64,000 nucleotides of DNA from Myxococcota bacterium. GTDB lineage: Bacteria; Myxococcota_A; UBA9160; UBA4427. The notes beneath the pieces were generated by a model. The model saw nothing but the letters and a program-made list of their open reading frames with translations, made no database searches and had not been told where the DNA came from. Shown here one piece after another: positions 14,311-24,229 of the stretch. Positions within the stretch are counted from its first letter, which is position 1. Each line of letters begins with the position of its first letter. Both the position numbers and the translations under genes were made by a program. The DNA is taken from NCBI GenBank assembly GCA_965250285.1, contig OZ252299.1, positions 4,736,001 through 4,800,000 on the forward strand, in the 5' to 3' direction.

Positions 14311-14432
14311 GAGCCTGGGGGTGGCCTGGCTCGACCCGAGTCGAGCGGGCCTGAGATCACACCCTTGGAACCTGATCTCGTCCGTCGCAGCCCGTGATTT
14401 CGGTGCCGCGGCGGCGAGCGTAGGAAAGGCTC
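14311..14432 (+). ncRNA. TPP riboswitch (THI element) with extended P5
   Basis: P1 GAGCCT/AGGCTC; GGGGTG, CTGAGA, ACCCTTGGAACCTGAT and AGCGTAGGAA conserved blocks; directly upstream of thiC. Confidence 0.92.
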
Positions 14433-14563
14433 GGACCGGCGCTCCGTTTCGATCCGTTCGGGGGCCTCGTCGCTTGCGCGGTCTGCAGGCAACGAGTCGC
14501 CCGACGCACCCGACCGGTAGCCGCGCGCAGGCGCGATGCCACCGGCTCGACCGGAGGCGCCTC

Positions 14564-16372
14564 ATGGCAGACCACGACGACGCGATCCACCGCACCCTGC
14601 CCCGCGCATCGGCGAACCCCGCCACGCGCGAGCACGGCACCACGCCGGGCAGCTTTGCCAACACGCCCGCCATCGGCACGCCGATGACGTTCAGCTCACC
14701 CGATACGCCCGGCATGCCGGCCGCTTCCGAGAAGACGGCGTGGGATTTCATGCCCCCCGACTGGCGACAGATCGGCGACGAGTGGGTGCCGCCGGCCGGG
14801 TTCGAGCCCGTGACCCAGCTCGAGCACGCGCGCCTCGGCAAGATCACCCCCGAAATGCGGCGCGTGGCCGAGCGCGAGCCACACCTGACGCCCGAGCAGG
14901 TGCGCGACGAGGTGGCGGCCGGTCGCATGGTGATCCCGGCCAATCGCGTCCACCTCGGCTACCAGCTCGACCCGATGGCGATCGGACGCGCTTCGCTCAC
15001 CAAGATCAACGCCAACATGGGCGCTTCGCCGGTCTCGAGCGGAAGTGAAGAAGAGGTCGAAAAGCTGCGCTGGGCCGAGCGCTGGGGCGCCGACACGGTG
15101 ATGGACCTGTCGACCGGCGGCGACCTCGATTCGACGCGCAAGGCGATCATCCAGAACGCGAAGGTGCCCATCGGAACGGTACCGATCTACTCGATGATCA
15201 TCGGTCGCAAGATCGAGGATCTCGACGAAGAGACAGTGCTTCGGTGTCTGGAGCATCAAGCGCAACAGGGCGTCGACTACTTCACGATCCACGCCGGCGT
15301 TCGCCGCGCCCATCTGCCGCTCGTGCGCGATCGGCTGATCGGCATCGTGAGCCGCGGCGGCTCGCTGCTCGCGAAGTGGATGATCCACCACGAGCGCGAG
15401 AATCTGATGGCCACGCTCTGGGGCGAGATCTGCCAGGTGATGCGGCGTTACGACGTCACGTTCTCGATCGGCGACGGGCTCCGCCCCGGCGGCCTGGCCG
15501 ACGCCACCGACGCGGCACAGCTCGGCGAGCTCGAAGCACTCGGCGAGCTGACCGAGGAGGCCTGGCGCCACGGCGTGCAGGTGATGATCGAGGGGCCCGG
15601 CCACGTGCCCTTCGATCAGGTCGAATACAACATGAAGCTGCAGCGCCGGCTCTGTCACGGCGCTCCGTTCTACGTGCTCGGTCCGCTCGTCACCGACGTG
15701 TTCCCGGGCTACGACCACATCGCGAGCTCGATTGGCGCGACGGCGGCGGCGTATCACGGCGCGAGCATGCTCTGCTACGTGACGCCGAAGGAGCACCTCG
15801 GCCTGCCAAAGCGCGAAGACGTCAAGCAGGGCTGCATCGCGTACAAAATAGCCGCTCACTCGGCGGACATCGCGCTCGGCATCCCCGGCAGCCGCGACTG
15901 GGACGACGAGCTCACCAAGGCCCGAGCCGCGCTCAACTGGGAGAAGCACTTCGAGCTGGCCTTCGACAGCGACACGGCCCGCGCGTATCACGACGAAGAC
16001 CTCGACGTCGACACCGACTTCTGTGCGATGTGCGGGCACGACTGGTGCTCGGTGCGCATCAGCAAAGAGATCGTCGAGTTCACATCGGGCAAGTCGGAGG
16101 AGTACGCGTGGGAGAAGCCGAAGGTCAGCGACGCACTCACCGAAGAGCAGAAGCGCATCCTGGAGCAGCGGGGTGTGCTGTCGCCTCAGGAGATCCATCG
16201 CCTGGCGTCGAAGACGCGCCAGGGCGTGGGCGCGAGCGAGGGCATGGCCGACTGCCACAGTGACGTGGCCTCGCGCGAGCTCGCCGAAGAGATCCAGCAT
16301 GAGCGGCTCGATCCCGCGACGCTCGAGCCGCTGGAGGGGTCGACGTCGGCCGGCTCACCCCAGATCGACTGA
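14564..16372 (+). CDS. thiC: Phosphomethylpyrimidine synthase ThiC
   Basis: GGAGG RBS; KINANMG, WGADTVMDLSTGG, EGPGHVP, CYVTPKEHLGLP, FCAMCGHDWC cluster motif. Confidence 0.97.
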   Translation: MADHDDAIHRTLPRASANPATREHGTTPGSFANTPAIGTPMTFSSPDTPGMPAASEKTAWDFMPPDWRQIGDEWVPPAGFEPVTQLEHARLGKITPEMRRVAEREPHLTPEQVRDEVAAGRMVIPANRVHLGYQLDPMAIGRASLTKINANMGASPVSSGSEEEVEKLRWAERWGADTVMDLSTGGDLDSTRKAIIQNAKVPIGTVPIYSMIIGRKIEDLDEETVLRCLEHQAQQGVDYFTIHAGVRRAHLPLVRDRLIGIVSRGGSLLAKWMIHHERENLMATLWGEICQVMRRYDVTFSIGDGLRPGGLADATDAAQLGELEALGELTEEAWRHGVQVMIEGPGHVPFDQVEYNMKLQRRLCHGAPFYVLGPLVTDVFPGYDHIASSIGATAAAYHGASMLCYVTPKEHLGLPKREDVKQGCIAYKIAAHSADIALGIPGSRDWDDELTKARAALNWEKHFELAFDSDTARAYHDEDLDVDTDFCAMCGHDWCSVRISKEIVEFTSGKSEEYAWEKPKVSDALTEEQKRILEQRGVLSPQEIHRLASKTRQGVGASEGMADCHSDVASRELAEEIQHERLDPATLEPLEGSTSAGSPQID

Positions 16373-17533: not shown

Positions 17534-17737
17534 ATGGACACCAGGATCAAGCTCTCGCTCGAGTTCAGCGTCTCCGAGAGCGCGCTCGAAGATGCGATGG
17601 CAGAGTACGACGAGCTGACCGTCGAGGGCCTGCTGAGCGAGCTCCTCGACAAGGCGATCGCCTGCGACGAGATCACGACCAAGGTCGTCGAGGGTCCGAA
17701 CACCCTCGAAGAGCTCGACGCCCAGAAGGCCTCCTGA
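17534..17737 (+). CDS. Small acidic hypothetical protein (67 aa)
   Basis: GGAGG at 17524-17528; MDTRIKLSLEFSVSESALEDAMAEYDELTVEGLLSELLDKAIACDEI...; strong genome-like codon usage. Confidence 0.8.
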   Translation: MDTRIKLSLEFSVSESALEDAMAEYDELTVEGLLSELLDKAIACDEITTKVVEGPNTLEELDAQKAS

Positions 17738-17905: not shown

Positions 17906-18484
17906 TCAGACGAAGAGATCGAGCTGCACCGCCGCGGGTCGCACCGGGGCGGCCTGTGGACGCACCCGCGGGCTGCGAAGCGACGCCGGCCGAGACGCGG
18001 GCGAGGCGGACTCAGCGAAGAGCGGCAGCTCCGGGTTCGCCGGCACCGGTGTCTTCGTGGCATGGGCCGGGGGGGCGCGGCGCTCGGGCGGGCGTGAAGG
18101 ACGGGTGCCCGGATCGGGCCGATCACGGCGCATCGTCTCGCGAGGCCGACCGACCGGCCCGGGGCAGTAGATCCCTTCGCGGCGAGCCCACTCGAGCAGC
18201 TGAGCGTAGAACGCCTTGAAGTGCGGACCGTGGTTGAAGTGCTTCAGGTGCGCGAGTTCGTGACAGAGCGTGTTTACGAGGCTCGAGTACTTGAGCGGCT
18301 CGCCGGTGGCCACGTGCCGCAAGCGAATCTTGATGCTTCCGTCGTCGTAGCAGATTCCGTAGCGCCGCTTGACGTTGGCGCGCTCGGGCTCGAGCGATCG
18401 GTAGCGCAGACCGAAGCGATGGCAGATGCGATCAGCGTCGCTGCGCAGCCGGCGCATCAGCTCGTTCTGGGTGCGGCGGTTCAT
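17906..18484 (-). CDS. Zn metalloprotease, WLM/Wss1-like (YgjP/SprT-related), with C-terminal QLDLF
   Basis: YGICY..GSIKIRLR...LKYSSLVNTLCHELAHLKHFNHGPHF; Pro/Arg-rich tail ending VQLDLFV. Confidence 0.8.
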   Translation of the reverse strand: MNRRTQNELMRRLRSDADRICHRFGLRYRSLEPERANVKRRYGICYDDGSIKIRLRHVATGEPLKYSSLVNTLCHELAHLKHFNHGPHFKAFYAQLLEWARREGIYCPGPVGRPRETMRRDRPDPGTRPSRPPERRAPPAHATKTPVPANPELPLFAESASPASRPASLRSPRVRPQAAPVRPAAVQLDLFV

Positions 18485-18613
18485 GACCTGGCCGAGTGTC
18501 GAGGCGTGCCGCGCCAACGTCAAGCCGCGCGACGCGCAGCCACCGCCCGAAGGCCCTCGCGCTGCGGCCCTGATACGGGGCACGAGCGAGCGTGATCGCT
18601 ACCTTTCGGGGGC

Positions 18614-19288
18614 ATGTCGAGTGAACCCGACGAGATCCCGCTGTTCCCGCTCCCCTCGGTGGTGCTGTTCCCGCTGGCCACGGTGCCGCTCTTCGTCTTC
18701 GAGCCGCGATACAGGCAGATGATCGCGGCCGTGCTCGAGCAAACGCCGAGCCGCATCGGGATCGTCTCGGTGCCCGAAGCACACCACGAAGAGATGGCGG
18801 GGGATCCCCCGATCGAGGAAGTGGGCTGCGAAGGCGAGGTCGCTGCCGCCGAGCGAAACCCCGACGGTACCTACCGTATCCTGCTTCGCGGCACGCGGCG
18901 ATTTCGCATCGTGAACGAGCAGCGGCCCGAAGGCGATCGACTCTACCGCCTCGCGCAGATCGAGCCGCGCGCCGAGATCGTCGAAGACGGGGACCGTGAC
19001 GCAATGCGTGCCGGCCGTGGCGAGCTGCTCACGCTGCTATCGGACTTGTTGCAGCGCACGTCGCCGCGGCACGCGAGCGCTTTCGATCGAAGCCGCTTCG
19101 ACGAAGTCGGTGATGAACAGCTGGTCAACGCACTCGCGCAGGCGGTCGATCTCGAGGCTCATGACAAGCAACAGCTGCTCGAGGTCGATCGGGTGTGCAC
19201 ACGGCAACACATGCTTTCCGAGCTGTTGAGGTTTCGAATCGCGCAGCTCGAAGGCGGAGGCAGCGCCGGACCGACCACGCTTCAGTGA
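18614..19288 (+). CDS. Stand-alone Lon substrate-binding (LON_N) domain protein
   Basis: IPLFPLPSVVLFP..VPLFVFEPRYRQMI, DGTYRILLRG..RFRI, KQQLLE motifs; no AAA or protease domain. Confidence 0.9.
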   Translation: MSSEPDEIPLFPLPSVVLFPLATVPLFVFEPRYRQMIAAVLEQTPSRIGIVSVPEAHHEEMAGDPPIEEVGCEGEVAAAERNPDGTYRILLRGTRRFRIVNEQRPEGDRLYRLAQIEPRAEIVEDGDRDAMRAGRGELLTLLSDLLQRTSPRHASAFDRSRFDEVGDEQLVNALAQAVDLEAHDKQQLLEVDRVCTRQHMLSELLRFRIAQLEGGGSAGPTTLQ

Positions 19289-19785
19289 ATCGATTCGGCT
19301 GCTTCAGCAGATGCCGAAAATCGACGCAAAAAGTATCCTGATCGATTTTGATTGAGATCGAGTGCGAAGCGGACTTTCCCCCTCGACACACGATCGCAAC
19401 GTCGAAGGCACCTGAACGGCGCGCGCAAACTCCGCATCGCATCATCGGAAAATGAAAAGCAAACAGCGGTTCTAGGCGACCCCGAACGCCATTTGACAGC
19501 TCTTCGCGCGGTTCACCGGTCGGTCACGATCTATGCATTTCGACTTTGCGAAGAGCGCATCGGGTGTGGAATATTACGTCCGTTCGAGGGCGGAACCGGA
19601 TCAAGAACGCTGGGATCATCCGGAACCGCCCAGAATCCCCCGAAAACGGCTTCCTCTTCCGAAAAACCGAGGATGAGCCGAGAGTGAAGTGAGAGGCACT
19701 CTCGGAAAAGAAGCCCCTAGATTCAACCGCGATGCGGGCTCTGCCGCAGTCGTCACGGAACCCGTCCGTCGCGGTTTGGGACACC

Positions 19786-21414
19786 ATGACCTTCCCCCCC
19801 AAGGTCTGGAGCGGTGTGCTGCGCCGACTCCAAGAAGAGCTACCTGCGTTCGCATTCGATGCGTGGATCGCCCCGCTTGCCCTGGGCGAGACGCGAAACG
19901 AACACGTCGTTCTGCTCTGCCCGACCTCCTTTCATCGTGATCGCGTTCGCAAGACGCTGCGCTCGCTCATCACCGCGGCCTTCGCCGACGAGCTCGGCCG
20001 GCCTGCGAGCGTCGAGTTCGACATCGGACGTGGCGGGATCGCGGCCGCTTCCCTCATCGACTCGCCCGCTGAATCGCAGGCGGTCGAAGCGCCCCGGGTC
20101 GCCCGAGCGCAGGCGGCTGCGGCCGAGGCGCCTCGTCGAGCGCCGGTGAAGCGGGTGCGCCCGGAGACCGAGGCTCGACGTGCGGTCGGCGCGGGCCCCC
20201 TCGCGCAGATGCTCCAGACCACGACGCAGGGCCTGCGGATCCAGCAGGCCCCCAGCGCGCCGCCCCGACCCCCGACCGAGTCGCGTGCCGAACTGCGAAC
20301 GGGTTCGCCCATCGCGCCCGGTCAGCGCGTGAACGACGGTCCGCCGCGACGGCCACAAGCGCGGCAGGCGCCAGCCGAAGCTCAGCCCGGGCTCCCCTAT
20401 TCGTTCGACAACTTCGTCGTCGGTCCCTGCAACGCCCTCGCCCGCGAGGCGGCGTTCGCCGTGGCGGGCGGCCAGGCCATGCCGCTGAAGCAGCTCTACC
20501 TCGCTTCGCCGCCGGGCCTCGGCAAGACCCATCTCGCCCGCGCCGTGGCGCTCGAGGTCGCGCGACACAACGATCGCCCCGTGCGCTACGCCAGCGCCGA
20601 GCTCTTCACGAGCGAGTTCGTCTCGGCCCTCCGCAACAAGACGACCGCCGAGTTCAAGCGGCGCTACCGGCCCGAACGGGGCGGCCTGCTGGTGCTCGAG
20701 GACGTGCAGTTCCTCGCGGCCAAGAAGGCGACGCAGCTCGAGTTCTTCCACAGCGTCGAGCACGTGCTCGAAGCCGGGGGCCGAGTGCTGCTCACCGGCG
20801 ACCGCATGCCGCAGGACATGGGCGACCTCGACGAGCGGCTCCGCGCGCAGCTCGGCCGGGGCTTCGTCGCGGGACTCGAGGCGCCCGACGCCCACGTCCG
20901 TCGGCAGATCCTCAAGGTCAAGGCGGCGCACGGCGCCATTGCGCTGCCCGACGAATGCCTCGACCTGCTGGTCGAATCGGTGGCGGGCAACGTCCGCGAG
21001 CTCGAAGGCGTATTGATGCAGGTGGTCACCACCTCGACGCTGCTCAAGCGACCGATCGATCTCGATCTGACGAAGCGCGCGATCCAGCAGAAGATGCAGG
21101 TGGTGGCGCCACAGGCGAAGCGCCCCGAGGTCGGCGACGTGCTCGCGGTGGTCGCCTCGTTCTTCAAGACGACACCCGAGCAGCTCGCGGCCCGCAGCCG
21201 GCGGCGCGCCGTTCTCGTCCCCCGGCAGCTGGCGATGTACCTCTGCCACCGTCACACCGACGCGCCGCTCGCCGACATCGGACGCGCCCTCGACCGGGAT
21301 CACCCCGCCGTGCGCAATGCGATCAAGAAGGTCGAGCGCGAGATGCTCGAGAATCCGCGCACGCGCTACCAGATCGAGGCCCTGACCACCCGGATTCTGG
21401 AGCGCACGAACTGA
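19786..21414 (+). CDS. dnaA: DnaA-family replication initiator-like protein (divergent, probable paralog)
   Basis: Domain I (VW..VL..L...FDAWIAPL), long linker, YSFDNFVVGPCN, GLGKTHL, NVRELEG, domain IV PRQLAMYL...IG..RDH; several key residues altered and no adjacent dnaN. Confidence 0.85.
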   Translation: MTFPPKVWSGVLRRLQEELPAFAFDAWIAPLALGETRNEHVVLLCPTSFHRDRVRKTLRSLITAAFADELGRPASVEFDIGRGGIAAASLIDSPAESQAVEAPRVARAQAAAAEAPRRAPVKRVRPETEARRAVGAGPLAQMLQTTTQGLRIQQAPSAPPRPPTESRAELRTGSPIAPGQRVNDGPPRRPQARQAPAEAQPGLPYSFDNFVVGPCNALAREAAFAVAGGQAMPLKQLYLASPPGLGKTHLARAVALEVARHNDRPVRYASAELFTSEFVSALRNKTTAEFKRRYRPERGGLLVLEDVQFLAAKKATQLEFFHSVEHVLEAGGRVLLTGDRMPQDMGDLDERLRAQLGRGFVAGLEAPDAHVRRQILKVKAAHGAIALPDECLDLLVESVAGNVRELEGVLMQVVTTSTLLKRPIDLDLTKRAIQQKMQVVAPQAKRPEVGDVLAVVASFFKTTPEQLAARSRRRAVLVPRQLAMYLCHRHTDAPLADIGRALDRDHPAVRNAIKKVEREMLENPRTRYQIEALTTRILERTN

Positions 21415-21486: not shown

Positions 21487-22731
21487 TCAGCCGCCGCTCG
21501 CGACCTCGCGTCGATGCAGTGGGCCATCGCGCCAGCGCGCGGGCCCCGAGAGCTCGACGCTGCGGGTCGGCTCGAGCGAGGGCGGGTCTTCGGACGGGTC
21601 ATCGAACCGGCGCAGGATCTTGTAGGTCGTCGATCGTTCGACCGGCACGCGCTCGATCTCGCGAATCAGCCGGCGGAACTCTTCGGGCGGGCAATTCTCA
21701 CCGTGCTGGCTGCCCGACTCTCGACTGATCGACTCTTCCATCAGCGTGCCGCCGAAGTCGTCGGCGCCCGCCTGCAGCGCCATCTGCCCCAGCTTCGGTC
21801 CCATCTTCACCCACGAGACCTGGATATGGTCGATCGTTCCGTGGAAGAAGAGCCGGCTGACGGCCACCATGCGCAGGTCTTCCATCATCGAAGCGCCCGG
21901 CCGGCTGCCCATGAAGTTGTAGAGCATGTTGCGCTCGTGGATGAAGCCGAGAGGGACGAACTCGGTGAACCCGCCCGTCTCCTTCTGCAGATCGCGCACG
22001 ATGCCCATGTGGGTCGCGATGTGGTGGGGCTGCTCGATGTGCCCGTACATCACGGTCGACGTCGAGCGCAGCCCGGCGCCGTGCGCCGCCTTGACGATCT
22101 CGACCCAGCGATCGGTCTTCAGCTTGTTCGGCGAGAGCACATCTCGCACCTCGTCGACGAGAATCTCGGCCGCGGTGCCGGGGACGGTGCCGAGGCCGGC
22201 GTCCTTCAGCCATGCCAGGTACTCGTCGAGCTTCATCCCGCTCTTGCGGTGACCGAAGTCGATCTCTTCGGGCGAGTATGCGTGGATGTGCAGGTCGGGA
22301 TAGGCGCCCTTGATCGTCGTCAGGATCTCGCGGTAGTGCTCGTGGGTCTTGTTCGGATGGATGCCACCCTGGATGCAGACCTCGGTCGCCCCGCGCGCAA
22401 TGGCGTCCTCGCACTTGGCGAGAATCACGTCCATCGAGTGATCGAACGACTCTTCGGCGTCGTCCTTGTGGCGCGCGAAGCCGCAGAACGAGCAGCCCAC
22501 GTAGCAGACGTTCGTGAAGTTGATGTTGCGGCACACGACGAAGGTCACGTCGTCGCCCTGCACGACGCGCCGCTGGTGGTCGGCGGCCGCGAGCAACGCG
22601 TGGAAGTCGGGGCCCTTCACGGTCAGCAGGCGTTCGAGCTCGCCGGTCGACATCTCGCGGCCCTCGAGCGAGCGCTCGAGAATGCCGGCGACCTCCGGCG
22701 TGACGGTGCCCAGGATCGATTCGAGACTCAT
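21487..22731 (-). CDS. cofH: FO synthase subunit CofH (radical SAM)
   Basis: NINFTNVCYVGCSFCGF, EVCIQGG, PGTAAEIL, TGGFTEFVPL.F, IQVSWVK.G, GGTLMEESISR; coupled to cofG. Confidence 0.9.
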   Translation of the reverse strand: MSLESILGTVTPEVAGILERSLEGREMSTGELERLLTVKGPDFHALLAAADHQRRVVQGDDVTFVVCRNINFTNVCYVGCSFCGFARHKDDAEESFDHSMDVILAKCEDAIARGATEVCIQGGIHPNKTHEHYREILTTIKGAYPDLHIHAYSPEEIDFGHRKSGMKLDEYLAWLKDAGLGTVPGTAAEILVDEVRDVLSPNKLKTDRWVEIVKAAHGAGLRSTSTVMYGHIEQPHHIATHMGIVRDLQKETGGFTEFVPLGFIHERNMLYNFMGSRPGASMMEDLRMVAVSRLFFHGTIDHIQVSWVKMGPKLGQMALQAGADDFGGTLMEESISRESGSQHGENCPPEEFRRLIREIERVPVERSTTYKILRRFDDPSEDPPSLEPTRSVELSGPARWRDGPLHRREVASGG

Positions 22732-23984
22732 GCGGCTTCCTCCCCGGATGGGGTGTCGGGGCGCTTGGCGAAGCCTTCCGCGTCGAAGAAGCGGGGCATG
22801 GCTTCACGCATCCGAGGATCGTAGAACGCGCTGCGGTCGGGCGTCACCCGGTCGGCGCCGCCCAGCACCCAGTCGGGATAGATCGGGCCGCGGTCGCGCA
22901 GCTCGAGGCCGGCCGCTCGGGTGACCTCGCGCAACAGCGGCAGCGTCGGCCAGGGCGCTTCGGGGTTGATGTAGTCGAGGGTGACCGGCGAGACGCCGCC
23001 CCAGTCGTTGATGCCGGCGCGCAGCAGCTCGGGCAGCACCGTCTCGCCGAGGTTCGGCGGCGCCTGCACGTTCGCATCCGGGCCCATCACCAGCCGGGCG
23101 ATCGCCGTCCAGCCCACCACTTCTTCGTCGCTGAGCGGCGAGACATGCCGCATGCGCGTCCCCGGCTTCGGGTGGAACGGCTGCACGATCAGCTCCTGGA
23201 TGTGGCCGTACGCGTCGTCGATGCGGCGAATCTCTGCGAGGGTCGCCGCGCGCTCGGCGTCGTTCTCGCCGATCCCCATGAGCAGGCCGCTCGTGAACGG
23301 GATCTTCAGCTCGCCGGCCTCTTCGTGCATGCGAATGCGCCGGGCCGGCTCTTTGTCGGGGGCATACTGGTGGGGCATGCCCTTGCCCCGCAGACGCTGG
23401 CTCGTGGTCTCCATCATGAGACCCATCGAGGCATTCCAGGGCCGCAGCCGCTCCATCTCTTCGATCGTCAGGATGCCCGCGTTGGTGTGGGGCAGCATGC
23501 CGCCCTCGAACGCGACGCGACACGCCTCGACGAGCAGATCCGTCGTCGACGCGTAGCCATCCCCCGCGAGCTGCTCGCGATAGCTGCGATAGGCGACTTC
23601 CGGCTTGTCACCGAGGCACATCAGGGCCTCGGTGCAGCCGGTCAGCACGCCGCCGCGTACGACCTCGGCCACCTCGTCGAGGCTGTAGGTGTGGGCTTCG
23701 GCGCTGTCGGGCAGCTTCGCAAAGGTGCAGTAGCTGCAGCGGTTGCGGCAGAGATTCGTGAGTGGAATGAAGACGTTGCGTGAGACCGTGACGACCGAGC
23801 CGCGTCCCTTGCGCGCGCTCTCCCAGGCGGCCTCGACGAGCGGGCGGCGCACCCGCTCATCGCCGACTCGAGCACCGAGGCGCTCGGCCTCGGGCGCTTC
23901 GAGACGGCCCGACGCGAGGGCGTCGTCGAGGATCGATCGAATGTCGTCGTCGCCGAGGGGACGGTCGTCGGAGGGAGCGCTCAC
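22728..23984 (-). CDS. cofG: FO synthase subunit CofG (radical SAM)
   Basis: SRNVFIPLTNLCRNRCSYCTF, GCTEAL..LGDKPE, LPHTNAG, SMGLMME, HIQELIVQ, QAPPNL, DWGGVSPVT.DYINPE.PWP. Confidence 0.93.
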   Translation of the reverse strand: MSAPSDDRPLGDDDIRSILDDALASGRLEAPEAERLGARVGDERVRRPLVEAAWESARKGRGSVVTVSRNVFIPLTNLCRNRCSYCTFAKLPDSAEAHTYSLDEVAEVVRGGVLTGCTEALMCLGDKPEVAYRSYREQLAGDGYASTTDLLVEACRVAFEGGMLPHTNAGILTIEEMERLRPWNASMGLMMETTSQRLRGKGMPHQYAPDKEPARRIRMHEEAGELKIPFTSGLLMGIGENDAERAATLAEIRRIDDAYGHIQELIVQPFHPKPGTRMRHVSPLSDEEVVGWTAIARLVMGPDANVQAPPNLGETVLPELLRAGINDWGGVSPVTLDYINPEAPWPTLPLLREVTRAAGLELRDRGPIYPDWVLGGADRVTPDRSAFYDPRMREAMPRFFDAEGFAKRPDTPSGEEAA

Positions 23985-24229
23985 GGGGGCCCTTCCCGGT
24001 GCAATACGGAGCCGGGCACGATAGCACGCGGGGGGACGCGCCCTCGGGTGATCGGTTGCGATGCCACGCGAATGATCCACTCGAGGGCTGCGATCGGGGC
24101 TCGATCTGCCGGTTGCTGGGGAGGGATTTCATCAAGCCGCGCGCGGATTTGGCCGATTCAGAGGGGGGATCGCCGCGCCTCATCGGGGGCGGCGGAACGC
24201 TCACCCTTGCACCGAGGTCCCCCGGCCCC

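Follow-up and report, generated by a model that had tools for sequence, protein, structure and literature searches.

The window, that is, the whole stretch of 64,000 nucleotides that was analysed, contains a gene for a small protein that combines a WLM-type metalloprotease core with a tail of the clamp-binding type. Table 1 lists the positions of the gene, of its parts and of its neighbours. The gene belongs to a locus of fixed order, which comprises the gene for an acidic protein of 67 residues, the protease gene on the opposite strand, the gene for a LonN protein and dnaA. Ordinary cofactor genes, namely thiC and the cofG/cofH-like pair, flank this locus.

Table 1. Positions of the protease gene, its parts and the adjacent genes in the window.
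Feature	Position	Strand	Remarks
WLM-type metalloprotease gene with clamp-binding-type tail	17906..18484	-	192 aa, translated ORF
Folded core, residues 1-108, predicted Wss1/WLM fold	18161..18484	-	pLDDT about 91-98 outside one loop; net charge about +9
Zinc site H75-E76-x-x-H79 ... H85 (HELAH-x5-H)	18230..18262	-	invariant in 120/120 top homologs
Pro/Ala/Arg linker, residues 109-186	17927..18160	-	pLDDT 53-62, without secondary structure
ELPLF string inside the linker	18017-18031	-	not conserved (homolog comparison)
QLDLF, predicted beta-clamp-binding motif	17912..17926	-	one residue before the C-terminus
Predicted sigma70-type promoter	18495..18523	-	TTGACG (18518-18523), 17 bp, GACACT (18495-18500)
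LonN, stand-alone LON substrate-binding domain protein, divergent neighbour	18614..19288	+	39/42 class loci
dnaA, only copy of the genome, start codon uncertain	19732..21414	+	42/42 class loci
67-aa acidic protein, convergent neighbour	17534..17737	+	41/42 class loci, no Pfam family
thiC	14321-16372	+	flanks the locus; ThiC in 49/80 loci
cofG/cofH-like pair	21487-24080	-	flanks the locus; CofH in 48/80 loci

The initial annotation had described a HELAH-x5-H zinc domain with a G-x-C, IKIRLR and Tyr layout, a disordered Pro/Arg/Ala tail of about 85 residues, and a QLDLF motif close to the C-terminus. All of these elements are present in the translation: G43-I-C45, I51-K-I-R-L-R56 and Y66 accompany the zinc site, the tail comprises 84 residues (109-192) rich in Pro, Ala and Arg and ends in QLDLFV, and the position given for QLDLF is exact. 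In an AlphaFold2 model based on a 53-row alignment, residues 1-108 reach a pLDDT >90 outside one loop, and the tail is unstructured and of low confidence. The string PELPLF (residues 151-156), which had also been pointed out, does occur in the linker; as a second clamp motif it was rejected, because an internal motif-like string is found in only 12 of 114 homologs.

The core is basic, with a median net charge of +9 per 100 residues versus a genome median of -4; 2.2% of the windows of the genome reach +8. The net charge of the tail is +0.08 to +0.14 per residue, compared to +0.10 to +0.12 for random codons of 66-74% GC. As this equals the expectation for GC-rich neutral sequence, the basic tail was rejected as a DNA-binding region, and no element comparable to residues 200-250 of SPRTN can be claimed.

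Among three Pfam families, WLM (PF08325) matched the core best, with 39.6 bits (cut-off 26; model positions 20-107 of 190). The YgjP-like family (PF01863) reached 35.9 bits (cut-off 26), and SprT (PF10263) remained with 22.8 bits below its cut-off of 25.6. The match to YgjP is confined to model positions 108-195 of 207: the protein starts at model position 108, and the N-terminal half of the model is unmatched. The 192-residue protein matched no NCBIfam family, and a PHROGs search yielded one marginal match only. In hhalign profile comparisons, a WLM protein of fungal origin and a YgjP-like protein tie (63.6 vs 63.7); the WLM alignment is the longer one (110 vs 87 columns) and covers the hairpin between IRLR and HExxH that is missing in the YgjP-like protein. 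More generally, the core contains the WLM-type segment IRLR-hairpin-Y..L..TL.HE, in which six residues that YgjP-like proteins lack lie between IRLR and the helix. In a quick tree of 67 rows and 110 columns, eight YgjP-like proteins form a long branch of their own (SH-aLRT 100); the rest of this tree, which has only two eukaryotic rows, both on long branches, is unresolved. By sequence alone, WLM and YgjP are not separated.

The predicted model was compared with 48,161 chains by means of VIA-align. Yeast Wss1 (5xbn) was the top match (Z 15.7, rmsd 1.9 Å, 105 aligned residues), followed by S. pombe Wss1 with Z 13.4-13.6 (5jig, 13.6). After a gap came the YbeY-type protein AQ_1354 (Z 9.2; another YbeY-type protein, 7.7), selecase (8.6-8.9), SPRTN (8.3-8.4) and proabylysin (8.4). 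Minigluzincin structures scored Z 7.4-8.9 versus 13.4-15.7 for Wss1, a comparison that bears on YgjP indirectly because the fold lists contain no bacterial YgjP structure. Foldseek gave only three matches at E<0.001, all of them Wss1. The best PDB sequence matches were Wss1 as well, albeit weak (E 0.074 for the single sequence, 0.005 for the profile); in these searches, the zinc-site residues align with those of Wss1b. A Wss1/WLM-type fold of the core is therefore well supported by the model. By Pfam score, zinc site and predicted fold the protein has a WLM domain; it is neither a SprT protein (score below cut-off, low Z) nor a full-length YgjP. Of the Wss1/SPRTN-like metalloprotease proposed initially, the Wss1 part stands (Z 15.7), and the analogy to SPRTN is looser (Z 8.4). 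A YgjP-type best match had been regarded beforehand as evidence against this assignment; the nearest structure is Wss1, and minigluzincins score 8.9 at most.

The order of Atlas clusters is Myxococcota, phage and then a plant-dominated WLM cluster at 0.90. Wss1-like folds have been described from prokaryotic toxins and, in a form lacking HExxH, from Tiamat, and giant viruses count WLM among their core genes. Fused forms were sought among 7,997 long candidates and dropped, as none of the 7 matches was informative: by inspection, two are likely products of a start called too far upstream, another two are eukaryotic, and the remaining three fall into a separate group without the motif. A further set of domains that score with WLM groups separately, with good support; these domains are parts of long proteins that are otherwise unrelated, lack the clamp motif and reached 54-57 bits with Pfam where scanned.

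Conservation of the terminal motif, which had been set beforehand as a check, was assessed in the 120 top-ranking sequences (the query among them) out of 2,158 homologs. QLxLF lies within the last 12 residues in 111 of these 120 sequences and anywhere in 114; it is also terminal in 42/42 class loci. The linkers vary in length from 22 to 107 residues and cannot be aligned, so QLxLF is the sole conserved element of the tail among the top homologs. Gln, both Leu and Phe are fixed, and position 3 is free (E35, D33, S25, T14, N4). Among 80 GTDB loci, 71 of the 77 complete ORFs carry the motif; the six misses include QLALL, QMWLF, QLMLI and two QGSLF. Clustering at 50% identity of full-core sequences scoring at least 100 bits gave 69 representatives, of which 64 possess a clamp-type motif, 60 after the core and four only before it, and five have none. 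Shuffling the tails of the representatives left a mean of 3.8 with a motif (maximum 11). In the four representatives with an N-terminal motif only, the motif appears to have been relocated. Distant relatives are mostly without it; at 55-100 bits, it is carried by 2 of 12. Given the composition of the genome, the chance of a terminal QLxLF is ~7.5e-5 per protein, and of the 25,798 six-frame ORFs only 3 have this ending: the protease, a Y-family polymerase and a radical-SAM protein. As judged from these comparisons, the terminal QLxLF is under selection. Some distant members without a C-terminal motif have a Q-x-x-L-F-type string at the N-terminus, and on one viral contig QLRLF lies in frame upstream of the domain, where the start is uncertain. 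The presence of a conserved Wss1-fold protein with a clamp-type motif is thus well supported; its function is addressed further below.

It is well established that clamps are placed onto DNA both at replication forks and behind them. According to a 2024 review of clamp partners (PMC11139829), QLxLF is the consensus of highest affinity, position 3 is tolerant and C-terminal tails are a usual site; the review nowhere uses the term 'protease'. The fixed and free positions of the motif match this rule, in agreement with the canonical type claimed for it by the initial annotation. Pol IV, Pol II, the alpha subunit of Pol III and Hda likewise possess a pentameric QLxLF that ends a disordered tail. 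DnaN is encoded once in the genome, at contig positions 4,903,706-4,904,818, and retains 16 of the 18 listed pocket positions as mapped by spacing, the exceptions being the equivalents of R246 and V344. It is therefore very probable that QLDLF is a ligand of the DnaN pocket, as predicted from its sequence. The radical-SAM protein that ends in QLELF (contig positions 3,247,952-3,249,244, forward strand) is presumably SplB-like and probably another clamp partner; its gene bears the top-scoring LexA-type box of the genome.

The predicted promoter ends 10 bases before the ATG. The pattern TTGAC...NAnnnT occurs at the same spacing in 60 of 74 syntenic upstream regions (shuffled sequences: mean 0.27, maximum 3), and the ATG start is supported by this conserved promoter-like element just upstream. 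A generic promoter/terminator scanner reported 0 sites in total, the predicted promoter being below its threshold. In the order, the direct repeat TTCG-N7-TTCG, found in 24 of 25 lexA upstream regions, is probably the LexA box. Candidate boxes in the genome mark lexA, the radical-SAM gene, a second Y-family polymerase and a RecA-like gene that may be of the ImuA type; they lie at contig positions 174,098, 174,126, 3,248,036, 2,805,386 and 2,799,409. No LexA-type box precedes the protease gene, where the best score is 4.6 versus 14-28 for the lexA sites, and the LexA core occurs in 1 of 80 upstream regions of the protease family. With these values, SOS regulation of the protease is not supported, and constitutive expression appears plausible. 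recA is likewise without a candidate LexA box.

The distribution was determined in 301 genomes of the phylum, among them 57 other genomes of the class, which we take to be GTDB class UBA9160. A single copy with a strong match (E below 1e-29) is present in 52 of the 57. Outside the class, 17 genomes gave weak matches, and the eight opened are YgjP-like; all eight YgjP-like proteins seen in this phylum lack a clamp tail. The record titles of relatives are mostly Myxococcota or Deltaproteobacteria. The bacterial range found is therefore narrow and consists of one uncultured Myxococcota-labelled class plus scattered lineages. In five class genomes (94-99% complete) the protease was not found; a profile search gave nothing strong elsewhere in them, and their locus is otherwise intact. 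Since this amounts to at least three losses, the protease is not essential. The LonN gene is lost together with the protease in three of these genomes and kept in two. The 67-residue protein, which is 46-76% identical across the class, is kept in all five; its Atlas clusters are Myxococcota-labelled only, and its model (pLDDT 68) has no Foldseek match at E<0.001. SRAP/YedK, a protein that itself forms crosslinks, does not co-vary with the protease: four of the five protease-less genomes keep SRAP, and five protease-bearing ones show none. Among the GTDB loci, dnaA lies within the locus in 69 of 80. Seven loci are non-syntenic (Bdellovibrionota, Acidobacteriota, other Myxococcota and unclassified); six of them keep the clamp-type motif, and an ORF listing revealed no repair genes in their neighbourhood.

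Since the tail ends in a conserved clamp-type peptide, the protein likely rides the replication clamp, and since clamps are loaded at and behind forks, this leash would keep the enzyme on DNA that is undergoing replication or repair. We tentatively propose, at slightly less than even chances, that it is a constitutive clamp-recruited protease for proteins crosslinked to or trapped on DNA. According to this proposal, the terminal QLDLF would dock in the hydrophobic pocket of DnaN, and the core would cut peptide bonds as a zinc endopeptidase. The latter activity is likely, as predicted from the intact zinc site. The active site would be open and of little sequence specificity, as in Wss1 and SPRTN. 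Wss1b has its site open to solvent, with no cleft for the substrate, and this accounts for the promiscuity of the Wss1 family (PMC5128726). The clamp tether and the basic surface of the core would confine the protease to DNA, and the tether would take over the part played by SUMO, ubiquitin or Cdc48 in directing the eukaryotic enzymes. At and behind the fork, DNA-bound protein obstacles would be trimmed to peptides within reach of excision repair or translesion polymerases. If clamp binding and protease activity are granted, by analogy a DNA-bound obstacle has a somewhat better than even chance of being the substrate. Of the clamp-recruited Wss1-like protease envisaged initially, fold, zinc site and motif conservation were corroborated; the likeness to SPRTN proved looser than proposed, and PELPLF is not conserved.

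By prediction, the protein would work like Wss1 with a clamp tether in the style of SPRTN or FAM111A. It shares with Wss1/WLM (PF08325; 5xbn, 5jig) the predicted fold, the HExxH-x5-H site, the IRLR-hairpin-TLxHE segment and the arrangement in which a disordered tail bearing an interaction motif extends from a small protease core. It differs in being bacterial, in its identity of 18-25% and in its tail, which ends in a beta-clamp-type motif and in which no SIM, SHP or VIM motifs were seen. As no SUMO- or Cdc48-binding motifs were seen in the tail and QLxLF is its only conserved element, the protein is not filed as a Wss1 ortholog. SPRTN (SprT; 6mdx) similarly joins an HExxH protease to a disordered tail with a sliding-clamp motif, in its case a PIP box for PCNA; in contrast, the fold match is only Z 8.3-8.4, the SprT Pfam score is below cut-off, and the bacterial protein lacks UBZ and SHP. 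FAM111A is a trypsin-like serine protease; it is thus also a protease with a clamp motif, but eukaryotic and of another protease class. Its PIP motif and its catalytic site are both required for clearing protein obstacles at forks, as stated in PMC7782752. The PIP box of SPRTN is needed for recruitment induced by UV and mostly not for that induced by formaldehyde (PMC5128726 and PMC7782752). It is thus largely dispensable for crosslink repair, whereas the clamp motif is the only conserved part of the bacterial tail, and the analogy to SPRTN is therefore an architectural one. YgjP-like/DUF45 proteins (PF01863) and the archaeal minigluzincins (4jiu, 4jix, 4qhf) belong to the same clan, share HExxH-x5-H, and the Pfam cut-off for the former is passed; the protease differs by the missing N-terminal half of the YgjP model, the WLM-type insert and the lower fold scores of these proteins.

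Several findings speak against a crosslink protease: the lack of a LexA-type box, of repair genes beside the non-syntenic loci and of co-occurrence with SRAP, the tied WLM and YgjP profiles together with the close Pfam scores (39.6 vs 35.9 bits), the absence from 5 of 57 class genomes, and the motif-less distant relatives. The position of the gene would fit a regulatory protease recruited by the clamp to a specific replication substrate, most attractively DnaA or another clamp partner, which we consider unlikely though worth weighing. DnaA has a long disordered domain II; clamps on the DNA would report that replication is under way, and the protease would switch off the initiator by proteolysis in place of Hda/RIDA, perhaps aided by LonN as an adaptor. 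The protease lies two genes from the only dnaA in 42/42 class loci and in the 69 of 80 GTDB loci mentioned above, and it has a housekeeping-type promoter without a LexA-type box. This synteny is inherited within one class and counts about once. Hda was not detected above the NCBIfam cut-off in any of 61 class genomes, which says little, since just one of 14 control genomes has an Hda above it. The protease is, however, missing from five genomes with an otherwise intact dnaA locus, seven loci lie away from dnaA and six of these carry the clamp-type motif, and the gene is transcribed away from dnaA. The WLM/YgjP ambiguity would be accommodated by a metal hydrolase associated with the clamp but devoid of protease activity, such as a YgjP-like nucleotide pyrophosphatase that would clean the nucleotide pool at the fork, or a nuclease-like zincin. 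E. coli YgjP is labelled a UTP pyrophosphatase, the protein passes the YgjP-like cut-off, its relatives are labelled YgjP/DUF45/M48 in databases, no other YgjP-like match occurs in the genome, and YbeY-type proteins are next to Wss1 in the fold list. The restriction of the match to one half of the YgjP model, the WLM-type segment with its six extra residues, the separate branch of the YgjP-like proteins and the gap between minigluzincins and Wss1 in fold scores make such a hydrolase quite unlikely.

The scattered bacterial range with clean losses, and the related small WLM-like domains common in phages and giant viruses, would fit a conflict or stress protease that removes foreign or toxic clamp binders, such as phage proteins or clamp-binding toxins, or stalled clamp complexes instead of crosslinks. 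Yet 52 of 57 class genomes have exactly one copy, located at a fixed core locus among housekeeping genes and without island-like character, so that this reading seems improbable. To a similar degree it is improbable that QLxLF binds something other than DnaN, e.g. an intramolecular inhibitory site or another hub, without any tie to replication. Distant members with a degenerate motif (QGSLF, QMWLF) or none are compatible with such a partner, but the fixed and free positions follow the clamp rule exactly, the AlphaFold model leaves the tail unfolded at low confidence, and the other two proteins ending in QLxLF are the Y-family polymerase and the LexA-box-bearing radical-SAM protein.

Proteolysis of crosslinks is established in yeast and animals. 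In bacteria, no dedicated protease for proteins stuck on DNA was found in the papers searched; PMC9234237 treated the existence of a DPC protease in E. coli as an open question in 2022, and PMC6945406 states that bacteria without cytosolic ATP-dependent proteases are not sensitised to formaldehyde or aza-deoxycytidine. The literature searches listed no paper that describes a clamp-motif-bearing WLM protease from bacteria. It is conceivable, with marginally less confidence than for the proposal on this protein itself, that bacteria have a dedicated replication-coupled DNA-protein-crosslink protease consisting of a minimal Wss1 core wired to the beta clamp. If true, it would be the first protease among the beta-clamp partners and a prokaryotic counterpart of Wss1, possibly a relative of its ancestor, and clamp-tethered proteolysis would have arisen in bacteria and eukaryotes without a need for SUMO, ubiquitin or p97. 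Whatever its substrate, a protease with a clamp motif would extend the list of beta-clamp partners beyond polymerases, repair enzymes and Hda. With a 110-residue Wss1 core and a clamp peptide, the question of a bacterial DPC protease becomes directly accessible to a test with four purified components, namely the protease, DnaN, a clamp loader and a model crosslink.

From the adjacent dnaA gene (contig positions 4,755,732-4,757,414), the distance to dnaN is ~146 kb and that to the GC-skew minimum at 4,891,306 is ~134 kb. A search for canonical DnaA boxes with at most one mismatch gave none beside dnaA, one near 4,907,755 and no cluster near dnaN. Directly upstream of dnaN lies an rpmH/rnpA-like block, as read from the translation. 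The possibility that the neighbour of the protease is a DnaA paralog was rejected: this genome has no other dnaA, and in the two genomes of the sister order that were compared, the copy corresponding to this neighbour scores higher. Six sister-order genomes carry an additional DnaA-like gene next to dnaN. Two of these dnaN-side genes were scanned and scored 239-248 bits without a match to domain I, compared to 343-359 bits for the relocated copy. The history of dnaA thus looks like a duplication and relocation, followed by decay or loss of the original.
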